Shown here one piece after another: positions 1 to 15,302 of a DNA stretch of 64,000 nt. The stretch covers positions 32,001 through 96,000 of the forward strand of contig JASLXV010000032.1 in NCBI GenBank assembly GCA_030740155.1, in the 5' to 3' direction. The position numbers and the translations under genes were made by a program. The DNA is from Dehalococcoidia bacterium. Lineage in GTDB: Bacteria; Chloroflexota; Dehalococcoidia; Lucifugimonadales; UBA3495. How positions within the stretch are numbered: the stretch's first letter is position 1; the number at the start of each line of letters is the position of its first letter. The notes beneath the pieces were generated by a model. The model saw only the letters and a program-made list of their open reading frames with translations. It searched no databases and had not been told where the DNA came from.

Positions 1-391
1 CTGCCCCGGGCTCGGATAGCCCCACCGAGATCCTCAGGTCACCGTTCAGAGTGGGGTACAGGTACTTTTCCTTGATGTAATCACTGGCACTGAAGAGCAT
101 CGCCGGAAAGACGATGGTGTCGAAAATCCGGCCGGTGAGCCAGGTCTTGTGGGTCTCGGTTTCAACCAGGAACATGCCCAGGGTGTCGAGCCCGCCACCT
201 CCGAACTTCTCGGGCACTCCCAGGTTCCACAGCCCCAGCTCTTTCACCTTTTCCCTTAGGGGCAGCCGAATCTCGTCGGGCAGCTCAAAGTCGTCATGGT
301 AATCCCGCTCGTAGGGGATGATCTCGGTTTCCACGAACTTGCGGACGGTGGTCTGCACCATCCGCAGTTCTTCGGGTATCTTTAGATCCAT
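1..391 (-). CDS. Acyl-CoA dehydrogenase, N-terminal part (runs off window start)
   Basis: Hand translation from ATG at 391 gives MDLKIPEELRMVQTTVRKFVETEIIPYERDYHDDFELPDEIRLPLREKVKELGLWNLG..., a close paralog of 632-1780; absent from the ORF track because it is truncated. Confidence 0.9.
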   Translation of the reverse strand, partial: MDLKIPEELRMVQTTVRKFVETEIIPYERDYHDDFELPDEIRLPLREKVKELGLWNLGVPEKFGGGGLDTLGMFLVETETHKTWLTGRIFDTIVFPAMLFSASDYIKEKYLYPTLNGDLRISVGLSEPGA

Positions 392-440
392 CACTTCCTC
401 TTCACAAATCTAGTTTCCAAGTATCCAAGCCAAGAGCTTG

Positions 441-536
441 AGTGCCGGCCCCAGCGGTCCTTCGACAGGCTCAGGACGAACGGATAAGGTGCTCCCGCTC
501 CGTTCGTGGTGAGCTTGTCGAACCACACTTTGGGAT
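441..536 (+). repeat. REP/MITE-like palindromic element, copy 1 of 3
   Basis: CCTTCGACAGGCTCAGGACGAACGG...CCGTTCGTGGTGAGCTTGTCGAACC inverted arms; near-identical reverse complement of 6350-6445 and 9171-9266. Confidence 0.85.
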
Positions 537-631
537 AGTTCCCAAGCCGTTATTTGGCACGCTGCAATATGATGTCCCCTAGGGACTCGGCAAAACCAAT
601 TTCATGAGACCACCGCCCTCCGGAGCGGGGC

Positions 632-1780
632 CTACTCCGTTACCTTGCGGTATCCCCTCAGGAGGTTGCGGGCCACGATCCAGCGGTGAATGTCGTTCGG
701 ACCCTCGATTATCTGTATCGCCCGCACGTCGCGGTACAGCCGCTCCAGGGGCAGGTCTTTGGAGTAACCCGCGGCCCCGAAGATCTGAATGGCCCGGTCG
801 ATGACTCGGGCCGCCATCTCGGAGACGTAGAACTTGCCCATGGATAGCTCTTGTCTGACGTCCTGGCCGTTGTCGATTTTCCAGGCCAGGTCGACCATCA
901 TCGTCCGTGAGGCGTGGATCTCCACCATCGATTCCGCCAGCTTGCATTGGACCATCTGGCGGTTGGCCAGGGGCTCGCCGAAGGTGGAGCGTTGGTTGGC
1001 GTAGTCCACGGCCATCTCCAGGGCCCGCTCCGCTGGGCCGATGGACCAGGCAAGGTTCCTGACCCGGGTCCGCGACAGGTGTACCTGAGAGTCTCCCCAT
1101 CCCTTGCCTTCCGAGGTAAGGCGGTTAACGGAGGGCACCACGCAGTCCTCGAAATGGGACTCGGATGTCTCGGAGAACCCCATCATGTAGAGGGGGCGGA
1201 CTACGAAGCCCGGGGTGTTCCGGTCGACGATGAATAGGTTGATTCCCTCCCGCCGCTGGGTGCCCTTCATCCGGGCCTGAACGATCATGTAGTCGCACTT
1301 GTGGCCCCACCCGTTCCACATCTTGGCGCCGTTGAGGACGTAGTTATCCCCATCAAGTTTTGCGTTGGTGGTGATGCCGGCCAGGTCTCCTCCGGCCCCG
1401 GGCTCGGTGAGACCCCAAGCGCCTCGCAGCTCCCCACGAAGGGTGGGATACAGGTACTTTTCCTTGAGATAGCCACTGGCCCCATAGAGCAGAGGATTGG
1501 CCCCGGACTCGAACAGCCTGGTGGAAAGCCAGGTCTTGCGGGTCTCGTTCTCCGCGAGGAGCACGCCCAAAGTGTTGAGGCCGCCACCTCCGAACTCGGT
1601 AGGCGTGCCCAGATTCCACAGCCCCAGTTCCTTCACTTTCTCCCTTAGCGGCAACCTGATCTCGTCGGGGAGCTCGAAATCGTCGTGGTAATCCCGCTCG
1701 TAAGGGATAATCTCGTTCTCCACGAACTTGCGGACGGTGGCCTGCACCATCCATAGTTCTTCAGGTATGGTCAAATCCAT
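632..1780 (-). CDS. Acyl-CoA dehydrogenase
   Basis: AWGLTEPGAGGD, LNGAKMW, YANQRSTFG, AIQIFGAAGY and IIEGPNDI motifs; start placed at MDLTIPEE by alignment with the neighbouring paralog. Confidence 0.95.
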   Translation of the reverse strand: MDLTIPEELWMVQATVRKFVENEIIPYERDYHDDFELPDEIRLPLREKVKELGLWNLGTPTEFGGGGLNTLGVLLAENETRKTWLSTRLFESGANPLLYGASGYLKEKYLYPTLRGELRGAWGLTEPGAGGDLAGITTNAKLDGDNYVLNGAKMWNGWGHKCDYMIVQARMKGTQRREGINLFIVDRNTPGFVVRPLYMMGFSETSESHFEDCVVPSVNRLTSEGKGWGDSQVHLSRTRVRNLAWSIGPAERALEMAVDYANQRSTFGEPLANRQMVQCKLAESMVEIHASRTMMVDLAWKIDNGQDVRQELSMGKFYVSEMAARVIDRAIQIFGAAGYSKDLPLERLYRDVRAIQIIEGPNDIHRWIVARNLLRGYRKVTE

Positions 1781-1872
1781 GATTCCCCGCCTCCCTGCGG
1801 CTTTTTCCGTGAGATCGGCCGACGCCGCGCAAAACCCCGCCACCCGCCGGTTTGGAGCTTCTTGGCAAGGGC

Positions 1873-1908
1873 CAGGGAAACCCTTTCTCGAAAGGGAGGG
1901 TTTCCCTG
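1873..1908. repeat. Intergenic inverted repeat (GGGAAACCCT...AGGGTTTCCC family)
   Basis: CAGGGAAACCCT...AGGGTTTCCCTG stem; resembles 37756-37793. Confidence 0.65.
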
Positions 1909-1941
1909 ACGTCCCGCTGCTAGGGATTGCCCGCCGAGGGC

Positions 1942-3147
1942 CTAGGCCACGGCCTGAGCCTCTTTCATACTGCTTATGTCGCCCGGAACGTAGCCCAGTT
2001 CCTTCAGAATCTCATCGGTTTGCGCGCCGGACTCGGGCGCGGGCGTAAAGTTGGTGAGTCCGGGCGTGTCCGAGAAGCCGATGGGCACGCCTATCTGGCG
2101 TATCTTGCCCAGCACCGGGTCGTCGAGTTCCCCTACCATTCCCCGTTGCACGATCTGGGGGTCATTCAAGGCTTCGTCGATGGTGTAAACCTTGCCGATG
2201 CAGATGTTGTGGTCCTTCAAAAGGTCCCACCATTCGTCCCTGGTCCGGGTCATGAAGATTCTCTCCAGCTCCCGGTGCACCTCGTCCCACTCCTCGGTGG
2301 GGGGAGCGTCCTGATGCTCGGGGGCTTGCTTCCAGGGGAGCAGGTCCTCCCGCTCGATGACGCGGCAGAAGTTCTCCCAGAAGTGGTGCTCGATGCACCC
2401 GATGGTGAACCACTTCCCATCCTTGGTCTCGTAGGCGCTGTAGTAAGGGTAGGAGCCGGCGGTGGCGGGCTCCCCCCGCTTGGGGCCTACACCTTCCAGG
2501 ATGTGGCTGTAGAGGGCACCGGAGCCGCTCATGATGCTGACCACCCCATAGACGTAGGACACATCGAGATGTTGGCCCTTTCCCGTTTGCTGCCGGGCCA
2601 TCAGCGCGGCCAGGACCGCGATGACTCCGTGCAGGGATGCCGACGAGAGGTCGGCGATCAGGTTGAGGGGCTCGACCGGCGGGCCGCCCCGGGTGCCGAG
2701 CATGTCCAGGACACCGGACATGGCCATGTAGTTCAGGTCGTGGCCGGGGAGGTGGCTGTAAGGCCCGGTCTGACCGTAGCCGCTGAGCGAGCAGTAGACG
2801 ATCCGGGGGTTGATGGCTCGGATCGTGTCGTAATCCACGCCCAGCCGCTTGGCGATCCCCGGCCTGTACCCTTCCACCACCACGTCGGCCGTGGCGGCCA
2901 GCTTTTGGAAAACCTCCTGGCTGGCGGCCTGCTTCAGGTCAAGGACGATGCTCTTCTTGTTGCGGTCGAGCCCCTGGCGTCGAATCCTTTGCTCCCGGTC
3001 GGTGCCCCGGGACCCTCGAACGGGGTCGTCGGGCCCATCGATCTTGATCACCTCGGCGCCCATGTCCGCCATCAGCCTGGTACAGAAGGCGCCGGGACCC
3101 ACCCGGGTCAACTCCAGGATTCGTATTCCATTCATTGGTGCAGTCAT
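1942..3147 (-). CDS. Class III CoA-transferase (CaiB/BaiF family)
   Basis: ADMGAEVIKID, RNKKSIVLDLK, ADVVVEGYRPG, SLSGYGQTGPY, GHDLNY; Asp at the catalytic position (LIADLSS). Confidence 0.95.
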   Translation of the reverse strand: MTAPMNGIRILELTRVGPGAFCTRLMADMGAEVIKIDGPDDPVRGSRGTDREQRIRRQGLDRNKKSIVLDLKQAASQEVFQKLAATADVVVEGYRPGIAKRLGVDYDTIRAINPRIVYCSLSGYGQTGPYSHLPGHDLNYMAMSGVLDMLGTRGGPPVEPLNLIADLSSASLHGVIAVLAALMARQQTGKGQHLDVSYVYGVVSIMSGSGALYSHILEGVGPKRGEPATAGSYPYYSAYETKDGKWFTIGCIEHHFWENFCRVIEREDLLPWKQAPEHQDAPPTEEWDEVHRELERIFMTRTRDEWWDLLKDHNICIGKVYTIDEALNDPQIVQRGMVGELDDPVLGKIRQIGVPIGFSDTPGLTNFTPAPESGAQTDEILKELGYVPGDISSMKEAQAVA

Positions 3148-3234
3148 ATTCCCCTCCTTCAGTATTTCCTTGGTGAAGAGCCCGGGGCCCTTTCGAGAAA
3201 CGACTCCCCTCGCCCCCGGCTTGCGGCTTCCGGG

Positions 3235-4719
3235 TTAGATTATAGCCTCCTGATTTCGGAGGGCGGTCTGTAGGACTTCCACGTCCAGGTCTCTGGGGGT
3301 CGTGCCCTCCTGAGCCGCCAGGGCCGCGGCGGCGCCCGCGGCGTGGCCGGTGGTCATGCACACGGACTGTTGCCGGACGGAAGCCTGAGCTATGTGATCG
3401 GCGGATATGCACCGGCCGGCGGTGAGCAGCCCCTCCACGTCTTTCGGCAGGAGGGCCCGGTATGGAATGTGGAACCAGCCCTTTTCGCCTCCGACCTCAC
3501 GCAGATCGGTGGGCTTTGTTCCGCCGTCCTCGTCGTGGATGTCAACGTAGGCCCCGCAGCGGCCAACGGCGTCCATGAACTCCCGCCCTTCCATCGCGTC
3601 CGCCTCGGTCAGGATGTAATCCCCGGTGATGCGCCGGCTCTCCCGGATTCCGAACATGGGCGCGGAGAGCAGCAGATAGCAGTTCTCGTAGCCGGGAATG
3701 TATTTGCGGTAGAAGGCGACCATCCCCAGAATGAACTTCCTGGAGGCCATGATGGCCTGGGCCAGCTCCTTTCGGTTGGTGGGCATGATGCCGAACGAGG
3801 TGTCCATGTTGTGGGCGGTGATGTAGGGGTCGGCCCGGCCGCCCCGCCAGATGGTGCGGAAGGGCCCCAGTTGAAAGACCGGACCCTTGGCGCCCAGGGC
3901 CACCGGGAAGTCGCCGTTTTCGATGGCCTGGTGATGCACCTTCTTGAACCCCTGGAACATCAGGGGCATGCCGGCCTTCAACCTTTGCTCCAGCACCTCG
4001 GGGGTGCTCTTGCTGGCGGAACTCTCCCGGCGAAGCTCGTCGGGGTTCTCCTTGAAGTAGTTCAGGACGCCCTGGATGTTCACGCCACCCACCAGGAAGT
4101 AGAGACTGGACGCCTGGGGACGGCCATCCGACGCGCGCCCCACCTCGAAGGGCGCCCCGGCCCGGTGGGCCACCGCGCCGTCGCCGGAGCAATCCACCAC
4201 CACCTTGGCCCAGATGACGTTCAGGCCGCCGTTGGTGGAAACCAGCACCCCGGCCACCCGGTTGCCGTCCATCACCACATCGACGAACTGGGCGCTGAAC
4301 CAGATGTCGACCCCGGCGTCGGTCATCATATCTTCCATGACCACCTTGGTCAGCTCATGGTCGAAATTCAGCTTGACGGTGGGATCGTCTTTCTTCCCCC
4401 AGGCGCCTCCCAATCCGATGAGCCGGTTGAGGAACTCCTGGGCCACGCCCCGGACCAGCGGGTCCCCTTCGTAGGATATCTCCTGGTCTTCGGTGGCAAT
4501 GCCCTGGTGGCGGAAGCCGGCGCTTCCCAGGACCATTGCCCCGGTCATGGTGCCGCCCAGGAACGGCAGGCTCTCCACGAGGGTGGTGCGTGCCCCTTTC
4601 CGGGCGGAGGCATAGGCCGCGGCCCATCCGGCGGTCCCGCCGCCGACCACCACCACATCGGTCTCTTCCTCTGATTCAATGGACGCGCTCAAGTGTTGCA
4701 TATTGGTCAGGGCAACCAT
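3235..4719 (-). CDS. FAD-dependent oxidoreductase (FAD_oxidored-like family)
   Basis: DVVVVGGGTAG Rossmann motif, VVDCSGDG, GIRESRRITGDY, IPYRALLP, AGRCIS; AGGAGG RBS before ATG 4719. Confidence 0.9.
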   Translation of the reverse strand: MVALTNMQHLSASIESEEETDVVVVGGGTAGWAAAYASARKGARTTLVESLPFLGGTMTGAMVLGSAGFRHQGIATEDQEISYEGDPLVRGVAQEFLNRLIGLGGAWGKKDDPTVKLNFDHELTKVVMEDMMTDAGVDIWFSAQFVDVVMDGNRVAGVLVSTNGGLNVIWAKVVVDCSGDGAVAHRAGAPFEVGRASDGRPQASSLYFLVGGVNIQGVLNYFKENPDELRRESSASKSTPEVLEQRLKAGMPLMFQGFKKVHHQAIENGDFPVALGAKGPVFQLGPFRTIWRGGRADPYITAHNMDTSFGIMPTNRKELAQAIMASRKFILGMVAFYRKYIPGYENCYLLLSAPMFGIRESRRITGDYILTEADAMEGREFMDAVGRCGAYVDIHDEDGGTKPTDLREVGGEKGWFHIPYRALLPKDVEGLLTAGRCISADHIAQASVRQQSVCMTTGHAAGAAAALAAQEGTTPRDLDVEVLQTALRNQEAII

Positions 4720-5005
4720 GGTTTCCTCCTGTGCCCAGCGGTTCTCTCCTTTGAGAGACACCGCGTTCGATGTCTATTAATCTCACCCGCCGCGACCGGC
4801 GACGGGCCACATGCGATACCATTTCGAACCGTTACGTCATTTCGCGACGTGAAAATCAGGCCCGCCCCCGCCCAAGGCCCCGCGAGCCGGCTGGGAAGCT
4901 CCTTTTGGCCCAAAGCAAACGGAGATATGGGAGATTCATCCTCGAGAGCCTTGACTGGGCCGGACCTGCCGAGGGACGGACGGAGTCTTCTGGAAGCGGT
5001 CCCGT

Positions 5006-6223
5006 TCACTCGATGACGCCCTCTTCCACCAGCCGGGCAATTTCCCCGTCGGAGAGGCCCAGGAGTTCGGAATAAACGTAGCCGTTGGCCTTGCCCAGGG
5101 ATGGCGCCGGGCGCCGGAAGCGGGCCGGGGTTTCGCTCAGGAAAGCGGGCGAGGCCTCGTAGGTGAAATCTCTAACCTCGGGGTCCTCCACGTCCCAGAA
5201 GTGCCCCCGGTGGCGTAGCTGGGGTTCAGCCCTCACTTGGGCGCTGTCGAGGGAGATACCGACCGGAACGCCGGCCGCCTGCAGCACGGTGGCGGTCTCC
5301 TCGGCATCTCTTTGCTCGGTCCAATTCTCGATCAGCCGGTCCAGTTCATCGGTGTGCCCGCGCCGATTTGATTCCGTGGAGAACCGCTCTTCACGGGTCC
5401 AGGCCGGGTTGCCCAACACCCGGCAAAATGCCAGCCATTGCTCCTCGTTGAAGACGGTGATGGCGCACCAGCGGTCATCGCCCTGGCAACGGTAGACGCC
5501 GTGGGGAGAGGCTTCGGGGTCGCTGTTCCCCCGGCGGGTCTGAACCCTGCCGTTGGCGCTGTAATCCATTATCGCGGTGCCCAGCAGGTCAATGGCGGCC
5601 TCGAAATCCGAGGCGTCGATGAACTGGCCCTTGCCCGTCCGGTTGCGGTACTCCAGGGCGGCCATGACCGCCGTAACCCAGACCGGGGGCAGGAAGTGGT
5701 CGGTCAGCGCTCCTCCGGGAGACATGGGTTCCCTCTCCGGCCAGCCGGTGACCTTGTAGAGCCCGGTCATCGCGGCCAGGACCGGGCCGTGGCCCCGGAA
5801 GTTCTGGTAGGGCCCGGACTGGCCGGCCAGAGACATTGCTATCATGATAATGTCCGGCTTGACCTTCTTCAACTCATCGTAGCCCAGCCCCAGATTGTCG
5901 ATGGCCCTCACGGTCCAATTCTCCGCGACGATGTCGGCAACCTTCACCAGGCCTTTGGCCAATTCCATCCCTTCCGGGCGTTTCAGGTTCAGCTGGATCC
6001 CCCTCTTGTTCTGGTTGTACCGGTGGAACATCACGGCCTTATCGGCGTCCGGAGGGCCGCCCACCCAGGGTCCGTGCCGGCGCATGACGTCCAAACGGGT
6101 GGATGTCTCCACTTTGATCACTTCGGCCCCGAAGTCGGCGAAGTGATGGGTGGTCAACGGGCCGACTCCTGCTATGGAGAAATCTATGACCCTGATGCCT
6201 TCCAACGCCTGCTTTGGGTTCAT
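5006..6223 (-). CDS. Class III CoA-transferase, probable catalytic subunit (BbsF-like)
   Basis: ADFGAEVIKVE, NQNKRGIQLNLK, ADIVAENW, GGALTDH with Asp; paralog of 7834-9051. Confidence 0.92.
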   Translation of the reverse strand: MNPKQALEGIRVIDFSIAGVGPLTTHHFADFGAEVIKVETSTRLDVMRRHGPWVGGPPDADKAVMFHRYNQNKRGIQLNLKRPEGMELAKGLVKVADIVAENWTVRAIDNLGLGYDELKKVKPDIIMIAMSLAGQSGPYQNFRGHGPVLAAMTGLYKVTGWPEREPMSPGGALTDHFLPPVWVTAVMAALEYRNRTGKGQFIDASDFEAAIDLLGTAIMDYSANGRVQTRRGNSDPEASPHGVYRCQGDDRWCAITVFNEEQWLAFCRVLGNPAWTREERFSTESNRRGHTDELDRLIENWTEQRDAEETATVLQAAGVPVGISLDSAQVRAEPQLRHRGHFWDVEDPEVRDFTYEASPAFLSETPARFRRPAPSLGKANGYVYSELLGLSDGEIARLVEEGVIE

Positions 6224-6349
6224 GGGACACCTCTGCTGCGTGATTTGCCGCGAGCATGCCTGCTTAACCCCTGCCGGTGGCCCAGCCCGCCGCCGGTGGC
6301 TGGTGGCCGGTGGTTGGCGCCGCCGCTTTGCCTGAACCACTGAATATCG

Positions 6350-6445
6350 ATCTCAAAAGGTGGTTCGACAAGCTCACCACGAACGGAGCAGGAGCGCGCT
6401 ATCCGTTCGTCCTGAGCCTGTCGAAGGACCGCTGGAGTCGGCACT
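6350..6445 (-). repeat. REP/MITE-like palindromic element, copy 2 of 3
   Basis: Core identical to 9171-9266; inverted relative to 441-536. Confidence 0.85.
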
Positions 6446-6473
6446 AAAGGTTTTGTGATAGTCGCTGAGGCCG

Positions 6474-7733
6474 CTATACGATCCCTTGTTTTCGCAGTTC
6501 CGTCAGCTCAGCTGGGGAGACCTCAAGCTCCCCAACCAGTATCTCCTCGTTGTGCTCGCCGATGAGCGGGGCCCTTCGCCAGATTCGCCAGGGGCTTTCT
6601 TCCATACGGAAGGGGGGACCCTGACAGGGCAGCTCGGTTTCCAACTCCGGGTGCTCCAAGTGGACGAAGTATTCGCGCTCCCGGAGGTGCTGGTCCTGGT
6701 ACACTTGGTCCGGCCCCTTGACCGCGCACACCTGGATGCCCCGGCCCTGGCCCGCCTCCACCAGCCGGTCCCGTTGATGGTTCAAGGCGAATGCCTCGAA
6801 CAGTTCGTACATTCGGGCGCGCTGCGAGTCGGTGAATTCGCCGCCCTCCTCGAATACGTCGTGCCACTCTTCCCCGTACAGCTCCTGCCCCACGCCTTCG
6901 CCAGACATCCACTCGCGCACCTGCCGGCGATCGGGCCAGTAGGTGACGTAGGAGGTGATGTAACCGTCCTGACAGGCGAATAGGCGCCGCTCGTACCGGA
7001 TACCGGGAAGATAGGGCCCCGAAGGGTCCCGTTTTCCCACGACGCCGTGGCTCTTGTAGACGACGGAGGTGGTCTGCGTGGCCGCCATCATGCTCTCCTG
7101 GGCCGACACGTCCACATACTGCCCTTCCCCGGTCTGCTGGCGATGGAAGTGGGCCATCATGGTGCCCACGCAGGCGTAGCTGCCGGTCATCAGCTCCGTC
7201 ACCGGCAGGCTCACTTGGACCGGCGGCAGGTCGGGAGAGCCGGTGCCCTGGAGGAAGCCGCTCATGGCGCTGGCCACCAGATGCCCGCCTTGCCAGGAAG
7301 CCCTGGGCCCCTGGCTCCCGAAGGGCGCGATGGCGGTCCACACCAGGGAGGGGTTCTCCTGCTTGAGGCTTTCATAGCCGATACCGAGGCTGTCCAGATA
7401 GCCGGGCGGGAAACACTCGAGAACGAAGTGGGCCGTTTGGACCAGCCGGCGGAAGAGCCGCCGGCCGGGCTCGGACTCAAGATCGAGGGTTACGCTGCGC
7501 TTGTTCACGTTGTACAGGAGCCAGAACAGGCTGCGCTCCGGGTGGGGCGAGTCATGGTAGAACGGGCCGCGGCGGCGCATGGCATCGCCCCCGGGCGGCT
7601 CGATCTTGATTACGTCGGCGCCCAGGCAACCCAGCATCCGGCCGCTGAAGACGCCCAACTCGTTGGTGAGGTCCAGGACCCGGTAGGGCCCTAGGGCGGT
7701 TTCGTCGCGGTTGACCACGTTCTCCTTTCCCAT
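6474..7733 (-). CDS. Class III CoA-transferase, partner subunit (BbsE-like)
   Basis: LGADVIKIEPPGGD, NVNKRSVTLDL, DVSAQE, RAPLIGEHN; Glu rather than Asp at the apparent catalytic position (PVTELMTG). Confidence 0.92.
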   Translation of the reverse strand: MGKENVVNRDETALGPYRVLDLTNELGVFSGRMLGCLGADVIKIEPPGGDAMRRRGPFYHDSPHPERSLFWLLYNVNKRSVTLDLESEPGRRLFRRLVQTAHFVLECFPPGYLDSLGIGYESLKQENPSLVWTAIAPFGSQGPRASWQGGHLVASAMSGFLQGTGSPDLPPVQVSLPVTELMTGSYACVGTMMAHFHRQQTGEGQYVDVSAQESMMAATQTTSVVYKSHGVVGKRDPSGPYLPGIRYERRLFACQDGYITSYVTYWPDRRQVREWMSGEGVGQELYGEEWHDVFEEGGEFTDSQRARMYELFEAFALNHQRDRLVEAGQGRGIQVCAVKGPDQVYQDQHLREREYFVHLEHPELETELPCQGPPFRMEESPWRIWRRAPLIGEHNEEILVGELEVSPAELTELRKQGIV

Positions 7734-7833
7734 TTGGGGGTCAGTTCCAACTGACCGGAAAATTCACCATCCGCTTTTGGACCGGCTCTGGGCCAGTTGA
7801 AGGTGGGGGTGGTGATCGCCAGGGTAGTATCTT

Positions 7834-9051
7834 TTACTCTACGACGCCCTCTTCCACCAGGCGGGCGAACTCCCCGTCCGACAGGCCCAGAAGCTCCGAG
7901 TAGACGTAGCCGTTGGCCTCGCCCAGGGTTGGCGCCGTGGACCGGTAGCGCGCGGGGGTTTCATCCAAAAGGCAAGGCGGGGACTCGTAGGTGAACCGGC
8001 TCGCCCGAGGATCGTCCAGGCCCCAGAAGTGCCCCCGGTAGGCTAGCTGGGGGTCATCCCACAGCTGAGCGCCGTCGAGGGAGACGCCGGCAGGCACGCC
8101 GGCTTCCTGTAGAACGGTTGCGGCGTCCTCGGCGCTTTTCTCCCGGGTCCAGAGTTCCACCAGAAGGTCCAGCTCATCGGCATGCTCGTGCCGCTGTGCT
8201 TCGGTGGAGAACCGCCCTTCTTGGGTCCAGGGCGGATTGCCCATCACGTGACAGAAGGCCAGCCATTGCTCCTCGTTGAACACCGTGATGGCGCACCAGC
8301 GGTCATCGCCCTGGCAGCGGTACACGCCATGGGGCGCGGCGTCGGGGTCCCGGTTTCCCCGGCGGGTTTGGACGTGGCCGTTGGCGCTGAAGTCAACAAT
8401 CGCGGTACCTAGTAAGTCCAGGGCGGACTCGAAGTCCGACGCGTCGATGAACTGGCCCTTGCCCGTCCGGTCCCGGTACTCCAGGGCGGCCATAACCGCC
8501 GTCACCCACACGGGGGGCAGGTAGTAGTCGGTCAGGGCGCCTCCGGGGGACATGGGCTCCCCATCCGGCCAGCCGGTGAATTCGTAGAGGCCGGTCATGG
8601 CGGCCAAGACCGGCCCGTGTCCCCGGAAGTTCTGGTAAGGCCCGGACTGGCCCGCCAGAGACATCGCGATCATGATGATGTCGGGTTTGACCTTCTTCAA
8701 CTCCGCGTAGCTCAGCCCCAGCTTGTTGATTGCCCTCACGGTCCAGTTCTCCGCCACCACGTCGGCAACACTGACCAGTCTTTTGGCCAGCTCCGCTCCT
8801 TCAGGCCGCTTCAGGTTCAGCTGGATACCCCTCTTGTTCTGGTTGAACCGGTGGAACATCACGGCCTTGTCGACATTCGCCGTGTCCCCCACCCAGGGAC
8901 CGTGCCTGCGCATGACGTCCAGCCGCGTGGAGGACTCCACTTTGATGACCTCGGCCCCGAAGTCGGCGAAATGGTGGGTAGTCAGAGTGCCGACCCCGGC
9001 GATGGAGAAGTCGATGACCCTAACACCTTCCAGCGCTTGCCTCGAGTCCAT
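7834..9051 (-). CDS. Class III CoA-transferase, probable catalytic subunit (BbsF-like)
   Basis: Paralog of 5006-6223 (GGALTDY); start at MDSRQALEG by paralog alignment. Confidence 0.92.
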   Translation of the reverse strand: MDSRQALEGVRVIDFSIAGVGTLTTHHFADFGAEVIKVESSTRLDVMRRHGPWVGDTANVDKAVMFHRFNQNKRGIQLNLKRPEGAELAKRLVSVADVVAENWTVRAINKLGLSYAELKKVKPDIIMIAMSLAGQSGPYQNFRGHGPVLAAMTGLYEFTGWPDGEPMSPGGALTDYYLPPVWVTAVMAALEYRDRTGKGQFIDASDFESALDLLGTAIVDFSANGHVQTRRGNRDPDAAPHGVYRCQGDDRWCAITVFNEEQWLAFCHVMGNPPWTQEGRFSTEAQRHEHADELDLLVELWTREKSAEDAATVLQEAGVPAGVSLDGAQLWDDPQLAYRGHFWGLDDPRASRFTYESPPCLLDETPARYRSTAPTLGEANGYVYSELLGLSDGEFARLVEEGVVE

Positions 9052-9170
9052 GGGACACCTCTGCTGCGTGATTTGGCGCGACAATGCCTGCTCAACCCCT
9101 GCCGGTGGCCCGGCCCGCCGCCGGTGGCAGGTGGTTGGCGCCACCAATTGCCCTGAACCACTGAATATCG

Positions 9171-9266
9171 ATCTCAAAAGGTGGTTCGACAAGCTCACCA
9201 CGAACGGAGCAGGAGCGCGCTATCCGTTCGTCCTGAGCCTGTCGAAGGACCGCTGGGGTCGGCACT
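9171..9266 (-). repeat. REP/MITE-like palindromic element, copy 3 of 3
   Basis: Core identical to 6350-6445. Confidence 0.85.
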
Positions 9267-9294
9267 AAAGTTTCTGTGATAGTCGCTGAGGCCG

Positions 9295-10566
9295 CTATAC
9301 CGCTCCCAACTGTTGTAGCCGGGCCATCTCTTCCGAGGAAAGGCCAAGCTCTTCCAGGTATATCTCCTCGTTGTGCTCGCCGATGAAGGGGGCTCTTTTC
9401 CCGATGTGCCAGGGGCTCTCCCCCATGCGGAAGGGCGGTCCCTGATACGAAAGCTCCGTCCCCAACTCCGGGTGCTCCAGACTGACGAAGTACTCCCGCT
9501 CCTGAAGGTGTAGGTCCGTGGATACCCCCTCCACCCCTTTGAACGGACACACCTGGATGCCCCGTCCCTGGCCCTTCTCCACCAGTTCGTCGCGTTCGTG
9601 ACGCAGGGCGAAGGCCTCGAACAGCTCATACATGTGGGCGCGCTGAACCTCGGTGAACTGGCCGCCCTCTTCGAACGGCTCGTTCCATTCGTCCCCATAT
9701 AGCTCCTGGCCTATGCCCTCGCCGGCCATCCACTCCCGTACCTCCCGGCGATCGGGCCAGTAGGTGACGTAGCAAGTGATGTACCCGTCTTTGCAGGCGA
9801 AAAGCCGCCGCTCGCTCTGGGAGCCGGGAACATAGGGGCCCGAAGGGTCCCGGCGCCCCACCAGGCCGTGGCTCCGGTAGAAGGACGGCGCGTTGATCGC
9901 CGCCCGCAACATGCTCTCCTGGGCTGAGACGTCCACGAACTGCCCTTTCCCAGTGCGCTGGCGATGAAAATGGGCCATGAGGCTGCCCACGCAGGCGTAG
10001 GAGCCGGTCAGAAGCTCGGTCACCGGCAGGCTCACCTGGACCGGGGGCAGGTCGGGGGAGCCGGTACCCTGCAGGAAACCGCTCGTGGCGCTGGTCACCA
10101 GATGCCCGCCCTTCCAGGAAGCCCGGGGCCCCTGGCTGCCGAAGGGCCTGATGGCGGTCCACACCAGGGAAGGGTTCTCCTCCTTGAGGCTCTCATAGCC
10201 GATACCCAGGCCGTCCAGATAGCCCGGCTCGAAACACTCGAGAACGAAGTGGGCCGTCTTGACCAGCCGGCGAAAGAGCTGCTGGCCCGCCGGGGACTCC
10301 AGGTCGATGGTTACGCTACGCTTGTTCACGTTGAAATGGAGCCAGAACAGGCTGCGCTCCGGGCCGGGCGAGTCGTGGTAGAAGGGCCCTCGGCGACGCA
10401 TTGGGTCGCCACCGGGAGGCTCTACCTTTATGACGTCGGCGCCCAGGCAGCCCAGCATCCTGGCGCCGAAGACGCCCAACTCGTTGGTAAGGTCCAGGAC
10501 TCGGTAGGGCCCCAGGGCGGTTTCGTCGCGCTTGACCACGCTCTCCTTCCCCACGGGAGTTTCCAT
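9295..10566 (-). CDS. Class III CoA-transferase, partner subunit (BbsE-like)
   Basis: Paralog of 6474-7733 (PVTELLTG). Confidence 0.92.
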   Translation of the reverse strand: METPVGKESVVKRDETALGPYRVLDLTNELGVFGARMLGCLGADVIKVEPPGGDPMRRRGPFYHDSPGPERSLFWLHFNVNKRSVTIDLESPAGQQLFRRLVKTAHFVLECFEPGYLDGLGIGYESLKEENPSLVWTAIRPFGSQGPRASWKGGHLVTSATSGFLQGTGSPDLPPVQVSLPVTELLTGSYACVGSLMAHFHRQRTGKGQFVDVSAQESMLRAAINAPSFYRSHGLVGRRDPSGPYVPGSQSERRLFACKDGYITCYVTYWPDRREVREWMAGEGIGQELYGDEWNEPFEEGGQFTEVQRAHMYELFEAFALRHERDELVEKGQGRGIQVCPFKGVEGVSTDLHLQEREYFVSLEHPELGTELSYQGPPFRMGESPWHIGKRAPFIGEHNEEIYLEELGLSSEEMARLQQLGAV

Positions 10567-10842
10567 CCAAACAGGAGAATCCTTTCAAACAGGGGAGTCC
10601 ATCCAAGTTTTCATAACAAACCCCTATCGCCCTTGAGCCAACCCGGATTTCGCGTCGGGCCTCTTCGAGGGTGACGGGGGGAATTCCCCTTTTCTCCCTG
10701 TACCGATGGGGGACTAAGGGGATTTTGAGCATCCTCACCAAACCGTGACCGGGGCGGCATTGGCTCTCGTCCGGCGTTGCCGCCCCAGCCAGGATCTGGC
10801 AGTACGAATATGTTGCCCGGTGAAAAAGAAGGGGGCCGAACT

Positions 10843-12126
10843 CTATACGACGGCCATCTCCTTGCGGTCGATGCACAGCTCGATGAACTCTTCGAGTTTC
10901 TCGTGCACCTCTTCCTCGTTGTAGAACTCTTCGTCCAGCATCCGCCCTTCCAGAAGGAGGCTGGGGATACCCAGCGCGTCCTCGGCCCGGTCCGCTATTA
11001 CCTGTGCCGAGCCCAGAGCCAAGGGACAACCGGATTGCTGGAAGTGAACGATGCCATCGATCTTGAAGCACTCAACCTGGTCCAGCACGAACTGGGTCCG
11101 GCGCTCGGTGTCGCCGCCCCAGGTGTTCCAGCCCATCCAGCGGGCCTCCTCCTCCAGCGGAGTCAGCTTGCGACCGAACTCCGGCTCGCCCAGACCGGGA
11201 GGGCTGTTCTTGTAGTCGGAAGAGCGGGAGGCGCCGCCGAACTCGAAGATGACCGTGGCAACGCCGCGATCCTCCAGGAACTTGAAGGGGTTGGCGTAGA
11301 AGGGCGCGCTGACCATCCAGTAGAAGCGCAGCCTCTCGTTCTCCAGGGCCCCCTTGCCGGAATCGGCCTTCACCTTCATCTCTTGGGCCAGCATCTGTGA
11401 ATACTCCACCGACCGCTCGCGGTCGGAGTGGTGGAACCGGGGCATGCGGATGACGTCCCGGCCGCTGATGGGGCAGGGGACGGTCGTCCGCAGCATGTAG
11501 GCCTCTTTCTGGTGGGCCATGAACTTCGCTTCCCACTCCTGGGCCTCGACCAGCTTGTCCATGTCGAACTTGACCCCGGGGACCTTAGCCTCGGCGAACT
11601 CGATAAGCTCCTCGAGTTGCTTCGCCATGTATTTCACGGTGTCTTCGTTGTAGTCGATTGGAATGTCAATCATGAAGTGGGGCGCCTTGTAGTGCCGGGC
11701 CACGGCGAGAACGGACAACTGGTGGGGGCTGCAGGAGAAGTTGCCGGTGGTGCAGAAGACCGGCTCCGGCAGGTCACCGTCAAACACCATGCCCATGCCC
11801 CCGATGATCCGGTCGCAGAGGCTGTCGTGGAGGCCCAAGGCCTTGGAGGTTTCGAAGTGCTTGGGGAACTCCGGCACCTCGCGGTCGGCGTCGGCGGCCA
11901 TACCTATGGTGTGGAAACCCATCGCGGTAAGGATCCGCTCGGCGCCAAGCCCGTCCAATACGGCGAAGGGCTTCCCCGCCTTCCAGGCGGCCAACTCATC
12001 CTTCCGATGGTGAATCCACATCTCGTAAAGCAGTTTGTTGCTGGCCAGCAGATTAGGATCCGGGTTCGCCTCGATCTTCTTGACCCGCCGCTCGTACTTG
12101 GCTATTTCCCTCTCGAAAAAGTTCAT
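10843..12126 (-). CDS. 2-hydroxyacyl-CoA dehydratase / benzoyl-CoA reductase-type Fe-S subunit (HgdA/BcrB/BzdO-like)
   Basis: 427 aa; three spaced Cys (SLCDR, FSCSP, SGCPL), IDGIVHF, LGIPSLLLEG, KLEEFIE C-terminus; adjacent to activator ATPases. Confidence 0.85.
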   Translation of the reverse strand: MNFFEREIAKYERRVKKIEANPDPNLLASNKLLYEMWIHHRKDELAAWKAGKPFAVLDGLGAERILTAMGFHTIGMAADADREVPEFPKHFETSKALGLHDSLCDRIIGGMGMVFDGDLPEPVFCTTGNFSCSPHQLSVLAVARHYKAPHFMIDIPIDYNEDTVKYMAKQLEELIEFAEAKVPGVKFDMDKLVEAQEWEAKFMAHQKEAYMLRTTVPCPISGRDVIRMPRFHHSDRERSVEYSQMLAQEMKVKADSGKGALENERLRFYWMVSAPFYANPFKFLEDRGVATVIFEFGGASRSSDYKNSPPGLGEPEFGRKLTPLEEEARWMGWNTWGGDTERRTQFVLDQVECFKIDGIVHFQQSGCPLALGSAQVIADRAEDALGIPSLLLEGRMLDEEFYNEEEVHEKLEEFIELCIDRKEMAVV

Positions 12127-12233
12127 CGGTTGCCCTCCCTTACAATTTAGTTGTTATGGGCCCGAAAATGGCTCTCCCAGCCCGCCCCGCCACGTCGCGC
12201 GCGCAGGCATTGGGCTGGTTGGACAGGGGCCAG

Positions 12234-13382
12234 CTAGGCATGGACCTTGAGCACCTCCAGGAATGCGCCGACCCTGGTGCGAAGCTGCCCCATGTTGGTC
12301 AACGCGTAGTCCCGCAGGATTGTCACCACCGGGATACCCGCCTGTTTCATCCGGGCCTCAAAGTAGACCACTCCATACAGGCGAGGCTGGCAATACATCT
12401 GGGGAAATTCAAGGACGCCGTCGATCCGCCAGTCGCGGGCCCAGCTTACCACCTGGTCCAACTGTTTTTCCCAGAAGTCGGCCCGGGCATTGGGCACGTC
12501 GGTCAGGTAGTGGCGGGCCAAGGCTTCCAGGGGCGGCAGGTTGGGGTCCACCTGGCCCCAGCAGGAGCCGGTACCGGTGTCCATGTCGTCCATCGCCACC
12601 ACACAGCCGGCGCTCTCGATCATCTCCATGTAGCCGGGGTGGTCCAGGTGGTCCGATGAGACCATTAGCCGCGGACGCATGCTCACGAAGGTGGCCTCTC
12701 GCTCCTTCAGGTAGGGCATCAACGCCTTCAGCTCCCGGTTGAGATCGTCGGGGGGCAGGCCGAAGGCCGCGGTGGTGATGGACAGGTACTCGGCGCCCGA
12801 TAGAGGGGGCACGTCCCGCTTGCGCAGCTCGTATAGCTCCTGGAAGAGCCTGCGGTTCTCGTTGTAGAGCCCAATCGCGTCCCCCAGGGTCTGTTCCGTT
12901 ATTTCCACTTTGAAGTGGTCTTCGATGGCCTTCCGCAGGTCCTGGAGTTCTTCCGTGAAGAAGTTGACGCTGGTGTCGATGTCTTTATGCGGGACGTGGA
13001 GGTATCGCAAGAACGGGACCTGCTTCTTGTGCTCTATCACCCCGTGCAAGCGGCGCATGTCATCGTCCTTGAAGGAGATGACGGCGCCCGCCAGGAAGTC
13101 CAGGTCTCCCGAGAACATGGACTCCAGCACGTGGGTACAGAACCCGCAGGCATTTTGAGGTCGGTACACGTCGGCCCTGGGGACGGCGGCGCGCCACGTG
13201 CCGCTGATGCGCCAGGATTGCAGGCCCCCAGCCCAAAAGAGTTCGTTAGCCATGAAGTGACAAACCGAGCCCACAATCTGCCGGCCCTGCTTTTTCAGCT
13301 CTCTCCCCCGGGCGATCCTTTCCTCTTCGCCGTTGGCCGCCAGCAGTTGCTGAAGCCTGGCCTCCATTTCAGTGTTTTGCAA
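12234..13382 (-). CDS. 2-hydroxyacyl-CoA dehydratase / benzoyl-CoA reductase-type Fe-S subunit (HgdB/BcrC/BzdN-like)
   Basis: ACGFC, IGLYNENRRL, VVAMDDMDTG, IDGVL...MYCQP, GQLRTRVGAFLE. Confidence 0.88.
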   Translation of the reverse strand: MQNTEMEARLQQLLAANGEEERIARGRELKKQGRQIVGSVCHFMANELFWAGGLQSWRISGTWRAAVPRADVYRPQNACGFCTHVLESMFSGDLDFLAGAVISFKDDDMRRLHGVIEHKKQVPFLRYLHVPHKDIDTSVNFFTEELQDLRKAIEDHFKVEITEQTLGDAIGLYNENRRLFQELYELRKRDVPPLSGAEYLSITTAAFGLPPDDLNRELKALMPYLKEREATFVSMRPRLMVSSDHLDHPGYMEMIESAGCVVAMDDMDTGTGSCWGQVDPNLPPLEALARHYLTDVPNARADFWEKQLDQVVSWARDWRIDGVLEFPQMYCQPRLYGVVYFEARMKQAGIPVVTILRDYALTNMGQLRTRVGAFLEVLKVHA

Positions 13383-13519
13383 AGTGGCACCCCTTTCTCT
13401 AGCTGAGTGCGCTACATCCTCCCGGCTCCGTGCTGGGCCCGAACCCTGGGCCCTCCCATCCCCGGAGTGGTAGAGTGGTGCAGGCGCTACCTACCCAATC
13501 CGTGGTTCGCCCGGGGTCT

Positions 13520-14365
13520 TCAGACCGGCTCTGCTCCCGCGGCCCCCATGCTTATCCCGACCGGCGCCGCCCCGACCACCGCGCCGGTCAAGGCCAGGTC
13601 TTTGGCGAAGACGGCAGCCCCAACGGCTCCGACGATTTGAGGCTCGAACGCCAACTGGGCCTTGACGCCCAGCACGGTTTCCACCCTCGATACGATGCCG
13701 ATGTTCTTAGCTACCCCGCCGCTGATGGCGAACTCTTCCTCTATTCCCCCGTTGCGGGCCAGCAGGCTCTTGATCCGCCGCACCAGGGCGTCGAAGGCCC
13801 CGGCAAGGATGGCCGAGCTTTCCACGCCCCGGCGGACCAGGCCCCACGCTTCCTGCTCGGCAAATACGGTGCAGTAGGCGCTGATCTTCACCGGTTCCGA
13901 GGTGGCGGTCAACGAGGTCGGCCCGATTTCCTCCAGAGGCATCTCCAACGCCCTGGCGACGCGCTCCAGGTATCTCCCGGTCCCCGCGGCGCACTTATCG
14001 TTCATGACAAATTTCAGGACTTGGCCCTTGTCATCACAGCTGATAGCCTTGCAGTCCTGGCCGCCCATGTCCAGAATGGTCCTCACCTCCGGGCGAAACC
14101 ACCAGGTGCCCTTGGCATGACAGGAAATCTCGGTCACGCTGGCCGAGGAGAAATCGACGTTCTCCCTACCGTAGCCGGTAGCCACGATGCTTTTCAGGTC
14201 ATTCATGTCGAGTGAGGCCGAGGCTCGGGCCTTGGCCAGGGCGTCCCGAGCGGCCTTCACGCTGTCGGGCCCGGTGGGAATGACCGCCCAAGAGACGATC
14301 TCTCCTTCGTTGAGTATCGCCGCCTTGGCGGTCAAACTGCCTACGTCGATTCCAGCAAACAACAT
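13520..14365 (-). CDS. CoA-substrate-specific enzyme activase, ASKHA ATPase (BadF/BadG/BcrA/BcrD family; BzdQ-like)
   Basis: GIDVGSLTAK, TGYGR, EISCHAKG, DMGGQDCK, MNDKCAAGTGR, CTVFAE, SGGVAKN; start at MLFAG. Confidence 0.95.
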   Translation of the reverse strand: MLFAGIDVGSLTAKAAILNEGEIVSWAVIPTGPDSVKAARDALAKARASASLDMNDLKSIVATGYGRENVDFSSASVTEISCHAKGTWWFRPEVRTILDMGGQDCKAISCDDKGQVLKFVMNDKCAAGTGRYLERVARALEMPLEEIGPTSLTATSEPVKISAYCTVFAEQEAWGLVRRGVESSAILAGAFDALVRRIKSLLARNGGIEEEFAISGGVAKNIGIVSRVETVLGVKAQLAFEPQIVGAVGAAVFAKDLALTGAVVGAAPVGISMGAAGAEPV

Positions 14366-14367
14366 AT

Positions 14368-15162
14368 CTAACTCCCCTCTGACGAAGCCCGAACTGAAGC
14401 CTGGGCGGTCACCGCGGCCCCGACGGCGCCCACGATTTCCGGGACTTCGGTGGTAAGCACGGAGAACCCGACCGTCTCCTCCAAAAACTTCTTGATGCCC
14501 TTGTTCTTGGCCACCCCGCCAACTATCACCACATCCTGCTCCATTCCGGCTTTCAACACCAGCGGGTAGAGCCGTTTGGCCATGCCGATCAGGACCCCCG
14601 CGACGATGTTCTCCTGCTTCTCGCGTTGGACGTGGATCAGGGAGATGATCTCGGACTCGGCGAAGACGGTGCAGACGTGGGCCACCTCTACCGGCGCCTC
14701 CGCGCTCAGCGCCAACTCCCCCATCTCCGCGATGTCGACGCCCAGGATGTCGCACACCACTTCCAGATACAGGCCGCTCCCCGAGGCGCACTTCTCATTC
14801 TTGGCCTGCTTCCGGACCCGGCTATCCACGCACCCGACCGCCAGGGCCTTTTGGGCGCCAATGTCCAGCACGGTTTTCGCCGAGGGAACGAAGTGCGGTA
14901 TGCCCCTGGCCAGAGCGGAGGGCTCGGGCACTTTCAGCCACCCCCCATTCACCTGCTCTCTGCCTATGCCGGTCACGCCGACGTGCTCTAGCTGATCCAA
15001 GGAGACACCGGCCTTCTGAGCCGCCTCGTTCAGCATCGATGCCGCCACGGTGGAGGCGGCATGCCTGCCCTGGTGCCCGATGGCATGGGCAATAACCCGG
15101 CCATCGTCCAGGATTATGGCTTTGGTCGTTTCCGCTCCAACATCAATTCCTGCGACTGCCAT
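14368..15162 (-). CDS. CoA-substrate-specific enzyme activase, ASKHA ATPase (BcrD/BzdP-like)
   Basis: GIDVGAETTK, TGIGR, DIGAQ, NEKCASGSG, CTVFAESEIISLIH, GGVAKN. Confidence 0.93.
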   Translation of the reverse strand: MAVAGIDVGAETTKAIILDDGRVIAHAIGHQGRHAASTVAASMLNEAAQKAGVSLDQLEHVGVTGIGREQVNGGWLKVPEPSALARGIPHFVPSAKTVLDIGAQKALAVGCVDSRVRKQAKNEKCASGSGLYLEVVCDILGVDIAEMGELALSAEAPVEVAHVCTVFAESEIISLIHVQREKQENIVAGVLIGMAKRLYPLVLKAGMEQDVVIVGGVAKNKGIKKFLEETVGFSVLTTEVPEIVGAVGAAVTAQASVRASSEGS

Positions 15163-15302
15163 AGGCCCACCTCTCCGCGTTGATTTGGGTACCATAATAC
15201 TTCGCGTGGGCGAATATTACAAATGCGAATACACATCGCTGCCGGCCGACCTTACCCAGTCTCACGACCGGGGGCGAATATTCCAACCAAGGCGACGAAC
15301 GC

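Follow-up and report, generated by a model that had tools for sequence, protein, structure and literature searches.

The gene cluster described here occupies positions 1 to 15162 of a 64,000-nucleotide stretch of DNA from a marine Dehalococcoidia bacterium, which was analyzed as a whole and is called the window (G000:C32:32001-96000, contig JASLXV010000032.1). It encodes a putative four-subunit, ATP-driven enzyme with similarity to benzoyl-CoA reductases (BCR) and 2-hydroxyacyl-CoA dehydratases (HAD). Judged by the sequences of its subunits, the enzyme is a separate branch of the BCR/HAD family and not a benzoyl-CoA reductase. The beta subunit of this clade, as aligned to its relatives, has lost the standard set of iron-sulfur ligands. 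The high-energy electron supplied by the activase is therefore likely to take a route other than that of the studied relatives, for which the textbook path runs from the activase via the beta cluster to the alpha cluster. A first-pass annotation of the same DNA had proposed an orphan, uncharacterized four-subunit enzyme of the BCR/HAD family, and this proposal was supported by the placement outside the Bzd and Bcr clades reported below.

Placement and distribution of the clade

The proteins display the features of the BCR/HAD superfamily, i.e. two subunits with the HGD-D fold, an ASKHA activase with two cluster cysteines and the three-Cys motif of alpha. Yet all four subunits scored below the curated cut-offs of the Bzd, Bcr, Had and DCCP models. 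The NCBIfam scores were 109 bits for BzdN (cut-off 454), 54 bits for BzdO (449), 241 bits for BzdQ (380), 33.5 bits for HadB (750) and 91 bits for HadC (700), and Fld and Hgd models did not appear among the matches. The best NCBIfam match of beta was the DCCP model NF040772 with 154 bits, again below the cut-off of 350.

Phylogenetic analysis of alpha was done with a quick tree of 73 rows and a careful tree with 36 of these 73 rows (LG+G4, no mixture model), omitting the duplicates and near-duplicates L014, L023, L029, L133, L148, L149 and L153. As references we used genomic copies scoring over the cut-offs (BzdO, which is L047; HadB; BcrB) rather than the type enzymes. The clade of the window alpha was separate with a support of 100 in the quick and 100/100 in the careful tree. 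BzdO, BcrB and HadB formed a group that excluded it (95/87), and a union with Bzd was rejected with a p-AU of 0.015. In addition, no oah, dch or had gene above cut-off was present in the assembly (3.6 Mb, 93.7% complete, 7.7% contaminated), the best scores being 89, 89 and 121 bits versus cut-offs of 464, 293 and 339. The first-pass annotation had named beforehand what would make this an ordinary benzoyl-CoA pathway, namely nesting within the Bzd/Bcr clades with dch/had/oah just outside the window. Both were looked for and neither was found; the 32 kb to the left of the window, which it had suggested to inspect, showed no dch/had/oah genes.

A homology search with alpha yielded 81 proteins of 29-94% identity followed by a sharp drop in score, and most of the named ones belong to Chloroflexota. 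Across 401 genomes of the class, at least 16 matches in at least nine genomes, including that of the window, scored above 290 bits, while the next match had 216 bits; because this survey scored four candidates per genome the counts are a floor. At the level of the order, no beta match at 1e-60 was detected in 250 other genomes, and among 40 relatives alpha was seen only in a genome of the same genus. Thus the genus is an outlier within its order, which is consistent with an acquisition of the gene set. Most of the clade comes from Dehalococcoidia; a few metagenome-assembled genomes of deltaproteobacterial type carry it as well. The 46 clade betas in the fetched loci had a full clade alpha next to them in 33 cases, a truncated one in 7 and none in 6. 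Apart from the clade, five genomes of the class (G110, G133, G152, G170 and G187) contained 59-74 first-look candidates each for the protein family, hinting at a large expansion. A Rhizobium leguminosarum plasmid (L109:6631-12059) carries an uncharacterized alpha-beta pair with two activases, which was unexpected in an aerobe.

Iron-sulfur ligands, active site and activases

The beta subunit of BzdN/HadC type is encoded at 12234-13382 on the minus strand (PF06050; residues are numbered from the TTG at 13382, while the ATG at 13367 is the likely start). The [8Fe-9S] cluster of BzdN is bound by Cys36, Cys73, Cys100, Cys263, Cys293 and Cys327 (PMC11971306). Alignment to BzdN assigned C41, C79, D106, D268, N298 and C331 of the window beta to these six double-cubane positions. 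We then counted the columns in 115 aligned sequences out of 120 listed beta homologues. Position 106, equivalent to Cys100, was an Asp in 107/115 and a Cys in 2/115; position 268, equivalent to Cys263, was an Asp in 110/115 and never a Cys. Cysteines were retained at position 41 in 29, at position 79 in 69 and at position 331 in 30 homologues. The proximal three-Cys triad (73/100/327 in BzdN) was complete in only 2/115 and wholly gone in 46/115 sequences, and 20/115 lacked Cys at all six sites. As a control, 50%-cluster representatives with all six columns filled were examined: the triad was present in 106/107 proteins below 400 bits versus 3/24 above, and the sole triad-less protein below 400 bits was placed inside the clade by the tree. 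All 13 published reference subunits keep the triad (PMC11971306, Suppl. Fig. 11, as recovered from scrambled PDF text), and so do HadC, BcrC and MbdN in our alignment. In a 2020 review, a three-Cys motif is described as common to both subunit groups (PMC7317905); the accessory-subunit motif reads C79, D106, C331 in the window beta. Of the claim that the locus combines two activases with two Fe-S subunits, the activases held up and are a trait of the whole clade, but beta is without the canonical ligand set.

Other accounts of the cysteine loss were ruled out. An alignment artefact is excluded by a profile alignment of the window beta to BzdN, DCCP, HadC and MbdN in which the ligand columns were free of gaps. 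The reading frames are intact and the predicted structure is of high confidence (pLDDT 95; TM 0.91; Z of 48.7 versus BzdN with 1.8 Å over 371 residues). Codon differences to the sister genome were 74 synonymous to 35 non-synonymous and 66 to 17 for the two subunits, indicating purifying selection. Thus pseudogene decay does not account for the loss. Selenocysteine is excluded because the codons at the replaced ligand sites are GAC, GAC and AAT, not TGA.

A beta tree built after dropping the six ligand columns recovered the clade with a support of 100. The six-Cys proteins P0220 and P0233 branched first and the remainder formed a group with a support of 97. The window beta grouped with P0101 (99), and P0244 sits beside it; both keep the triad. 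The three arginines that line the cluster cavity of BzdN are largely kept in the clade (101, 91 and 73 of 115), although the window beta has lost two of them. His84 is found in 104/115 and Asp108 in 110/115 homologues. The fixed aspartates of beta may replace the charge of the cluster, or they may bind another metal together with His84 and Asp108. Outside the clade, near HadC and BcrC, P0257 and P0289 have an Asp in the Cys263 column and one of them also in the Cys100 column, possibly an independent loss of ligands.

The catalytic alpha subunit of BzdO/HadB type is encoded at 10843-12126 on the minus strand (PF06050). Its columns were mapped by alignments alone, using 32 clade alphas from the fetched loci and a larger set of 79 sequences, i.e. 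the 81 close matches plus the query minus partial ones. The cluster cysteines C104, C132 and C367 were invariant in 79/79. The active site on the other hand appears to be rebuilt. The column of the catalytic Glu (Glu65 of BzdO) held a Glu in 37/38 alphas outside the clade, compared to 8/32 clade alphas from loci and 3/79 in the larger set; the window alpha has A77. An equivalent of Glu65 is present in all 12 published reference alphas (PMC11971306, supplement). The oxyanion column of Tyr97, which binds the thioester oxygen in BzdO, was an Arg in 25/32 clade alphas, Arg106 in the window, while 32/38 outside alphas had Tyr or Phe. Furthermore, Asp81, Arg82 and Asp105 are specific to the clade. 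Several pocket columns vary strongly inside the clade, which suggests, as far as alignments can tell, that its members act on different substrates.

The activase is represented by two minus-strand genes, P at 14368-15162 and Q at 13520-14365. P, with a BzdP-like role, keeps both cluster cysteines, but other residues stand in for the Asp and Lys of its GGQDxK ATPase motif. In Q the ASKHA ATPase motifs are canonical and the two cluster cysteines are present (TIGR03192, 240.6 bits with a cut-off of 380.2). This layout of two adjacent genes with P-like and Q-like motifs, predicted to yield a heterodimer, is orthologous across the clade in the order P then Q. Both cluster cysteines were kept in 22/22 clade P and Q proteins examined, whereas the Asp and Lys of the ATPase motif were present in 11/11 Q and in 0/11 P proteins, as in BzdP. 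An activase was nearby in 11 of 24 non-redundant clade loci of at least 8 kb, usually as a P-Q pair; departures from this are L021 with a fused Bzd-like activase and L146, whose activase belongs to another pair. P-Q pairs adjoin betas with one proximal Cys (L032, L034, L140, L141) or none (L138). Thus the electron injector is retained where the canonical acceptor cannot form. The annotation had taken two activases plus two Fe-S subunits as the architecture of a class I BCR. The P/Q-like pair is indeed there, yet it does not by itself point to ring reduction; the unrelated, uncharacterized loci L037, L038, L048, L092 and L098 hold two activases as well. Two fused forms were seen in passing. In L021:5999-7750 the fused P-Q activase is followed by a ferredoxin and comes directly after a clade beta-alpha pair, and the genome of the window encodes a long fused activase-domain protein of 1303 aa with a neighbor of the same system (G000:C48:21728-27234).

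Proposed electron route and competing explanations

We tentatively propose, at somewhat less than an even chance, that an ATP-driven electron is injected directly into alpha, where it drives a radical elimination at C2 of a chiral acyl-CoA. In the DCCP:DCCP-R complex each subunit has its proximal cluster about 17 Å away from the ATPase cluster, which sits on the two-fold axis (PMC9351452). The place of this proximal cluster is taken by the cluster of BzdO (PMC11971306). Therefore a direct route from the activase to alpha is geometrically possible. In the proposed sequence of events the BbsEF-like transferases of the cluster would load CoA onto a 2-substituted acid and the racemase-like protein would set the configuration at C2. 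P and Q would form a heterodimer with one bridging [4Fe-4S] cluster and, as the motifs suggest, a single intact ATPase site in Q. Beta, deprived of its ligands, would act as a docking scaffold, its conserved Asp residues probably balancing the arginines formerly around the cluster. The three-Cys cluster of alpha would reduce the thioester to a ketyl stabilized by Arg106; the C2 substituent would depart and the electron would be reused. Finally, the acyl-CoA dehydrogenases, the hydratase and the MaoC-type proteins would process the enoyl-CoA.

Several observations weigh against this proposal. In HAD the beta cluster stores the recycled electron (PMC11574389; PMC8473912), so that a dehydratase would be no better off without it than a reductase. 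The window alpha also lacks the Glu that HAD uses, and it has His135 in the His131 column of BzdO like only 5/79 homologues. The window beta, with C41, C79 and C331 kept, is among the least degenerate members of the clade. Thirteen of the 24 clade loci of at least 8 kb are without a nearby activase, and in the activase tree, from which BcrA was left out, the activases appeared nearer to BzdP/Q than to HadI, though weakly supported. The clade neighborhoods vary widely, no neighbor that defines a substrate and is common to the clade was found among its loci, and the control loci of the neighborhood comparison below are taxonomically different and not independent.

Because two of the three proximal cysteines remain in the window beta, an Asp-ligated cluster is a live, though unlikely, rival. 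Beta of the window would then still bind one [4Fe-4S] via Cys79, Asp106 and Cys331, with the ordinary HAD electron path at a retuned potential, and only the more derived members would be free of a cluster. Asp is a known ligand of Fe-S clusters (PMC11574389). Moreover, positions 106 and 268 are fixed as Asp, unlike the drifting positions 41, 298 and 331, and Asp106 may have multiple origins, as the window protein has the triad-keeping P0101 and P0244 as neighbors in the tree. On the other hand, the aspartates persist while Cys79 and Cys331 are kept in only 69 and 30 of the 115 homologues. They stay where the cysteines go, which argues that they are independent of them, and 46 homologues have no proximal Cys at all.

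A stoichiometric ATP-driven reduction of an unusual CoA ester (aromatic, heteroaromatic or enoyl), or the reductive cleavage of a C2 substituent, with two electrons arriving sequentially and no store, is in our view quite unlikely. The heterodimeric activase with its degenerate P resembles that of Bzd, His135 and Arg106 at the oxyanion site could ease a reduction, and ferredoxins and low-potential donors are encoded elsewhere in the genome. However, the double cubane proposed to gather electrons for ring reduction (PMC11971306) has lost its ligands here, the proton-donating Glu65 is absent, the gene cluster contains no ferredoxin gene and nowhere in the genome did dch/had/oah exceed their cut-offs.

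It is very unlikely that alpha works as a non-redox, Lewis-acid hydro-lyase at an open-site [4Fe-4S] with an activase that serves only for its reactivation or that many members can do without. This would suit the loci without a nearby activase, and TudS is a family precedent for a lost radical function (cited in PMC11971306). Yet the P-Q pair is orthologous throughout the clade with the cluster and Q-site motifs kept and heads the operon here; where a genome has several alpha-beta pairs, a single activase may serve them in trans. An ordinary class I benzoyl-CoA reductase with its ring-cleavage genes outside the window, suggested by the four-subunit layout and by BzdN and BzdO as nearest solved structures, has next to no chance, since an ordinary benzoyl-CoA pathway was ruled out by the BzdO, BzdN and BzdQ scores below cut-off, by the alpha phylogeny and by the lack of dch/had/oah above cut-off in the assembly.

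A bolder reading, with close to but not quite an even chance, is that the clade is a sixth type in the BCR/HAD/DCCP series: ATP-driven radical enzymes from marine and subsurface Dehalococcoidia whose only Fe-S cluster is the catalytic one, with a beta subunit free of cofactor (or with a non-Fe-S metal), a rebuilt Asp/Arg active site and an undescribed low-potential chemistry on CoA esters chiral at C2. The clade extends the published series of losses from DCCP via Bzd to HAD by a further step. BzdNO variants with Cys exchanges designed to eliminate one cluster proved unstable (PMC11971306). The clade offers natural versions under purifying selection with three to six cysteines gone as well as basal six-Cys members, so the role of the beta cluster can be tested directly. 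No description of this clade or of a Cys-poor beta subunit was found in the open-licence literature searched. In databases, some clade members carry the name benzoyl-CoA reductase subunit C; such names would overstate aromatic degradation by Dehalococcoidia.

Gene neighborhood and closest known systems

The twelve co-directional minus-strand genes listed in the first-pass annotation were all confirmed: two PF01869 activases, two PF06050 subunits, five PF02515 proteins, one PF12831 protein and two acyl-CoA dehydrogenases. They are transcribed in the order activase P, activase Q, beta, alpha, four paired class III proteins, FAD protein, fifth class III protein and the two dehydrogenases. As stated there, no ring-cleavage genes (dch/had/oah), CoA ligase or ferredoxin were identified within 1-15162. 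A sigma-70-like promoter match (9/12) lies just upstream of activase P at 15194-15222 on the minus strand; such matches are at chance level in the region with 3 found versus 2.8 expected. Contigs of RNA libraries from four studies matched parts of each of the four subunit genes, often with 99-100% identity, and P-Q as well as beta-alpha were bridged by some of them. They are weak evidence, because the stretch itself was used to find the runs and transcription cannot be shown by contigs.

The five presumed CoA-transferases turned out to be two near-duplicate heterodimers plus one racemase-like protein. The heterodimers arose by tandem duplication (78% and 80% identity), and the best solved-structure matches of the paired proteins are the two chains of the benzylsuccinate CoA-transferase BbsEF (9FN0). 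All are encoded on the minus strand: BbsE-like copy 1 at 9295-10566 (9fn0_A, E 2e-69), BbsF-like copy 1 at 7834-9051, BbsE-like copy 2 at 6474-7733 with 78% identity to copy 1, and BbsF-like copy 2 at 5006-6223 (9fn0_B, E 3e-80) with 80% identity to its counterpart. The BbsF-like partner has the Asp that we take to be catalytic in class III CoA-transferases, while the BbsE-like partner has a Glu in its place. The fifth class III protein (1942-3147, minus strand) is MCR/AMACR-like and best matches mycobacterial 2-methylacyl-CoA racemase (1x74, E 2e-58). Its His-Asp motif, a downstream Asp and a later Glu align with the mycobacterial enzyme, in which these residues presumably are catalytic. As the genome carries 101 PF02515 matches, five class III genes are less striking than they seem; 41 crotonase-family matches were counted besides these in the 3.6 Mb. 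Between the fifth protein and the paired ones lies the PF12831 FAD-dependent oxidoreductase (3235-4719, minus strand), for which homology searches gave no informative match. Acyl-CoA dehydrogenase 1 was assigned by a domain match (632-1780, minus strand); of the second, with 76% identity to it, the window contains the 5' part (1-394, minus strand), and the gene is complete at G000:C32:31234-32394.

Left of base 1 the same-strand gene run extends for about 11.7 kb with further CoA-ester genes, i.e. a class III protein, an SdhA-like flavoprotein, a MaoC-type protein, an enoyl-CoA hydratase, a second probable hot-dog-fold protein (no Pfam match at 1e-12) and two further class III genes. A racemase-like gene was near 6/24 clade loci compared to 1/81 other family loci, and class III genes were near 15/24 compared to 5/81. 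Locus L015 repeats much of the window set including both dehydrogenases, the BbsEF-like pair, the racemase-like gene and the SdhA-like flavoprotein. The association with the racemase-like gene and the gene set of L015 point to an acid with a chiral C2 as the substrate.

The same-genus genome has one BbsEF-like pair on one contig, in L024:7107-10613, together with three tandem acyl-CoA dehydrogenases, compared to two pairs and two dehydrogenases here. Two almost identical alpha genes lie on separate contigs of that genome, perhaps because the assembly is split there. A repeat of about 100 nt is found between genes, in both orientations, at 431-536, 6350-6455 and 9171-9270 of the window; with 32 BLAST matches genome-wide, 18 of them of at least 80 nt, it looks like a small dispersed repeat element. 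Further left of the cluster (G000:C32:310-20152; L001, L002) are two aldehyde:ferredoxin oxidoreductases, two molybdopterin enzymes, one with Fe-S and NrfD partners, an FmdE-like protein, a DHDPS-like protein and a selenophosphate-synthetase-like gene. Elsewhere the genome carries a second four-subunit cluster with O, N, P, Q and a ferredoxin, which groups with BzdO (G000:C81:7420-12075, also L025). It keeps the six double-cubane cysteines and the Glu, though not His131, and its O and N score below the Bzd cut-offs; the genome being without dch/had/oah, it is another candidate for an orphan reductase.

Among known systems, BbsEF (PDB 9FN0) and MCR (PDB 1X74) are the best solved matches of the four paired class III proteins and the fifth one, respectively; a benzylsuccinate-pathway context was not seen in the window cluster. 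DCCP/DCCP-R (PDB 6ENO, 7YZM; PMC7317905 and PMC9351452) shares the ancestral fold, and the basal clade members P0220 and P0233 keep all six cysteines. The window enzyme differs in being heterodimeric, in scoring below the DCCP cut-off of 350 and in the lost ligands, so that the six/seven-cysteine motif of DCCP is incomplete. BcrABCD and MbdONPQ (PDB 9G87/9GAI, judged by entry titles and alignments; no paper on these structures was found in the open-licence literature searched) share the folds and the four-subunit, ATP-driven design. Yet BcrC and MbdN keep the proximal triad, and BcrB groups with HadB rather than with the window clade.

HadBC/HadI, FldBC and HgdAB (PDB 3O3M) resemble the window enzyme in their alpha-beta dimer, which has an open-site cluster. 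The company of a class III CoA-transferase and an acyl-CoA dehydrogenase is shared as well with had operons. In L110, HadBC is flanked by a class III gene and one activase. However, a homodimeric activase, an intact three-Cys beta cluster and the alpha Glu are features of HAD, and the clade of the window has none of the three.

BzdNOPQ (Aromatoleum sp. CIB BzdNO, PDB 8S02; PMC11971306) differs from the window enzyme by an identity of only about 26% and by its position in a separate clade. Three of the six [8Fe-9S] cysteines are replaced in the window and more across the clade, Glu65 is exchanged for Ala77 and Tyr97 for Arg106, and the window cluster has no adjoining ferredoxin gene or dch/had/oah. 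Yet the two systems share the fold (Z 48.7, 1.8 Å), four separate subunits, a degenerate P-type next to a canonical Q-type activase, the three-Cys cluster of alpha and, with His135, the equivalent of His131.

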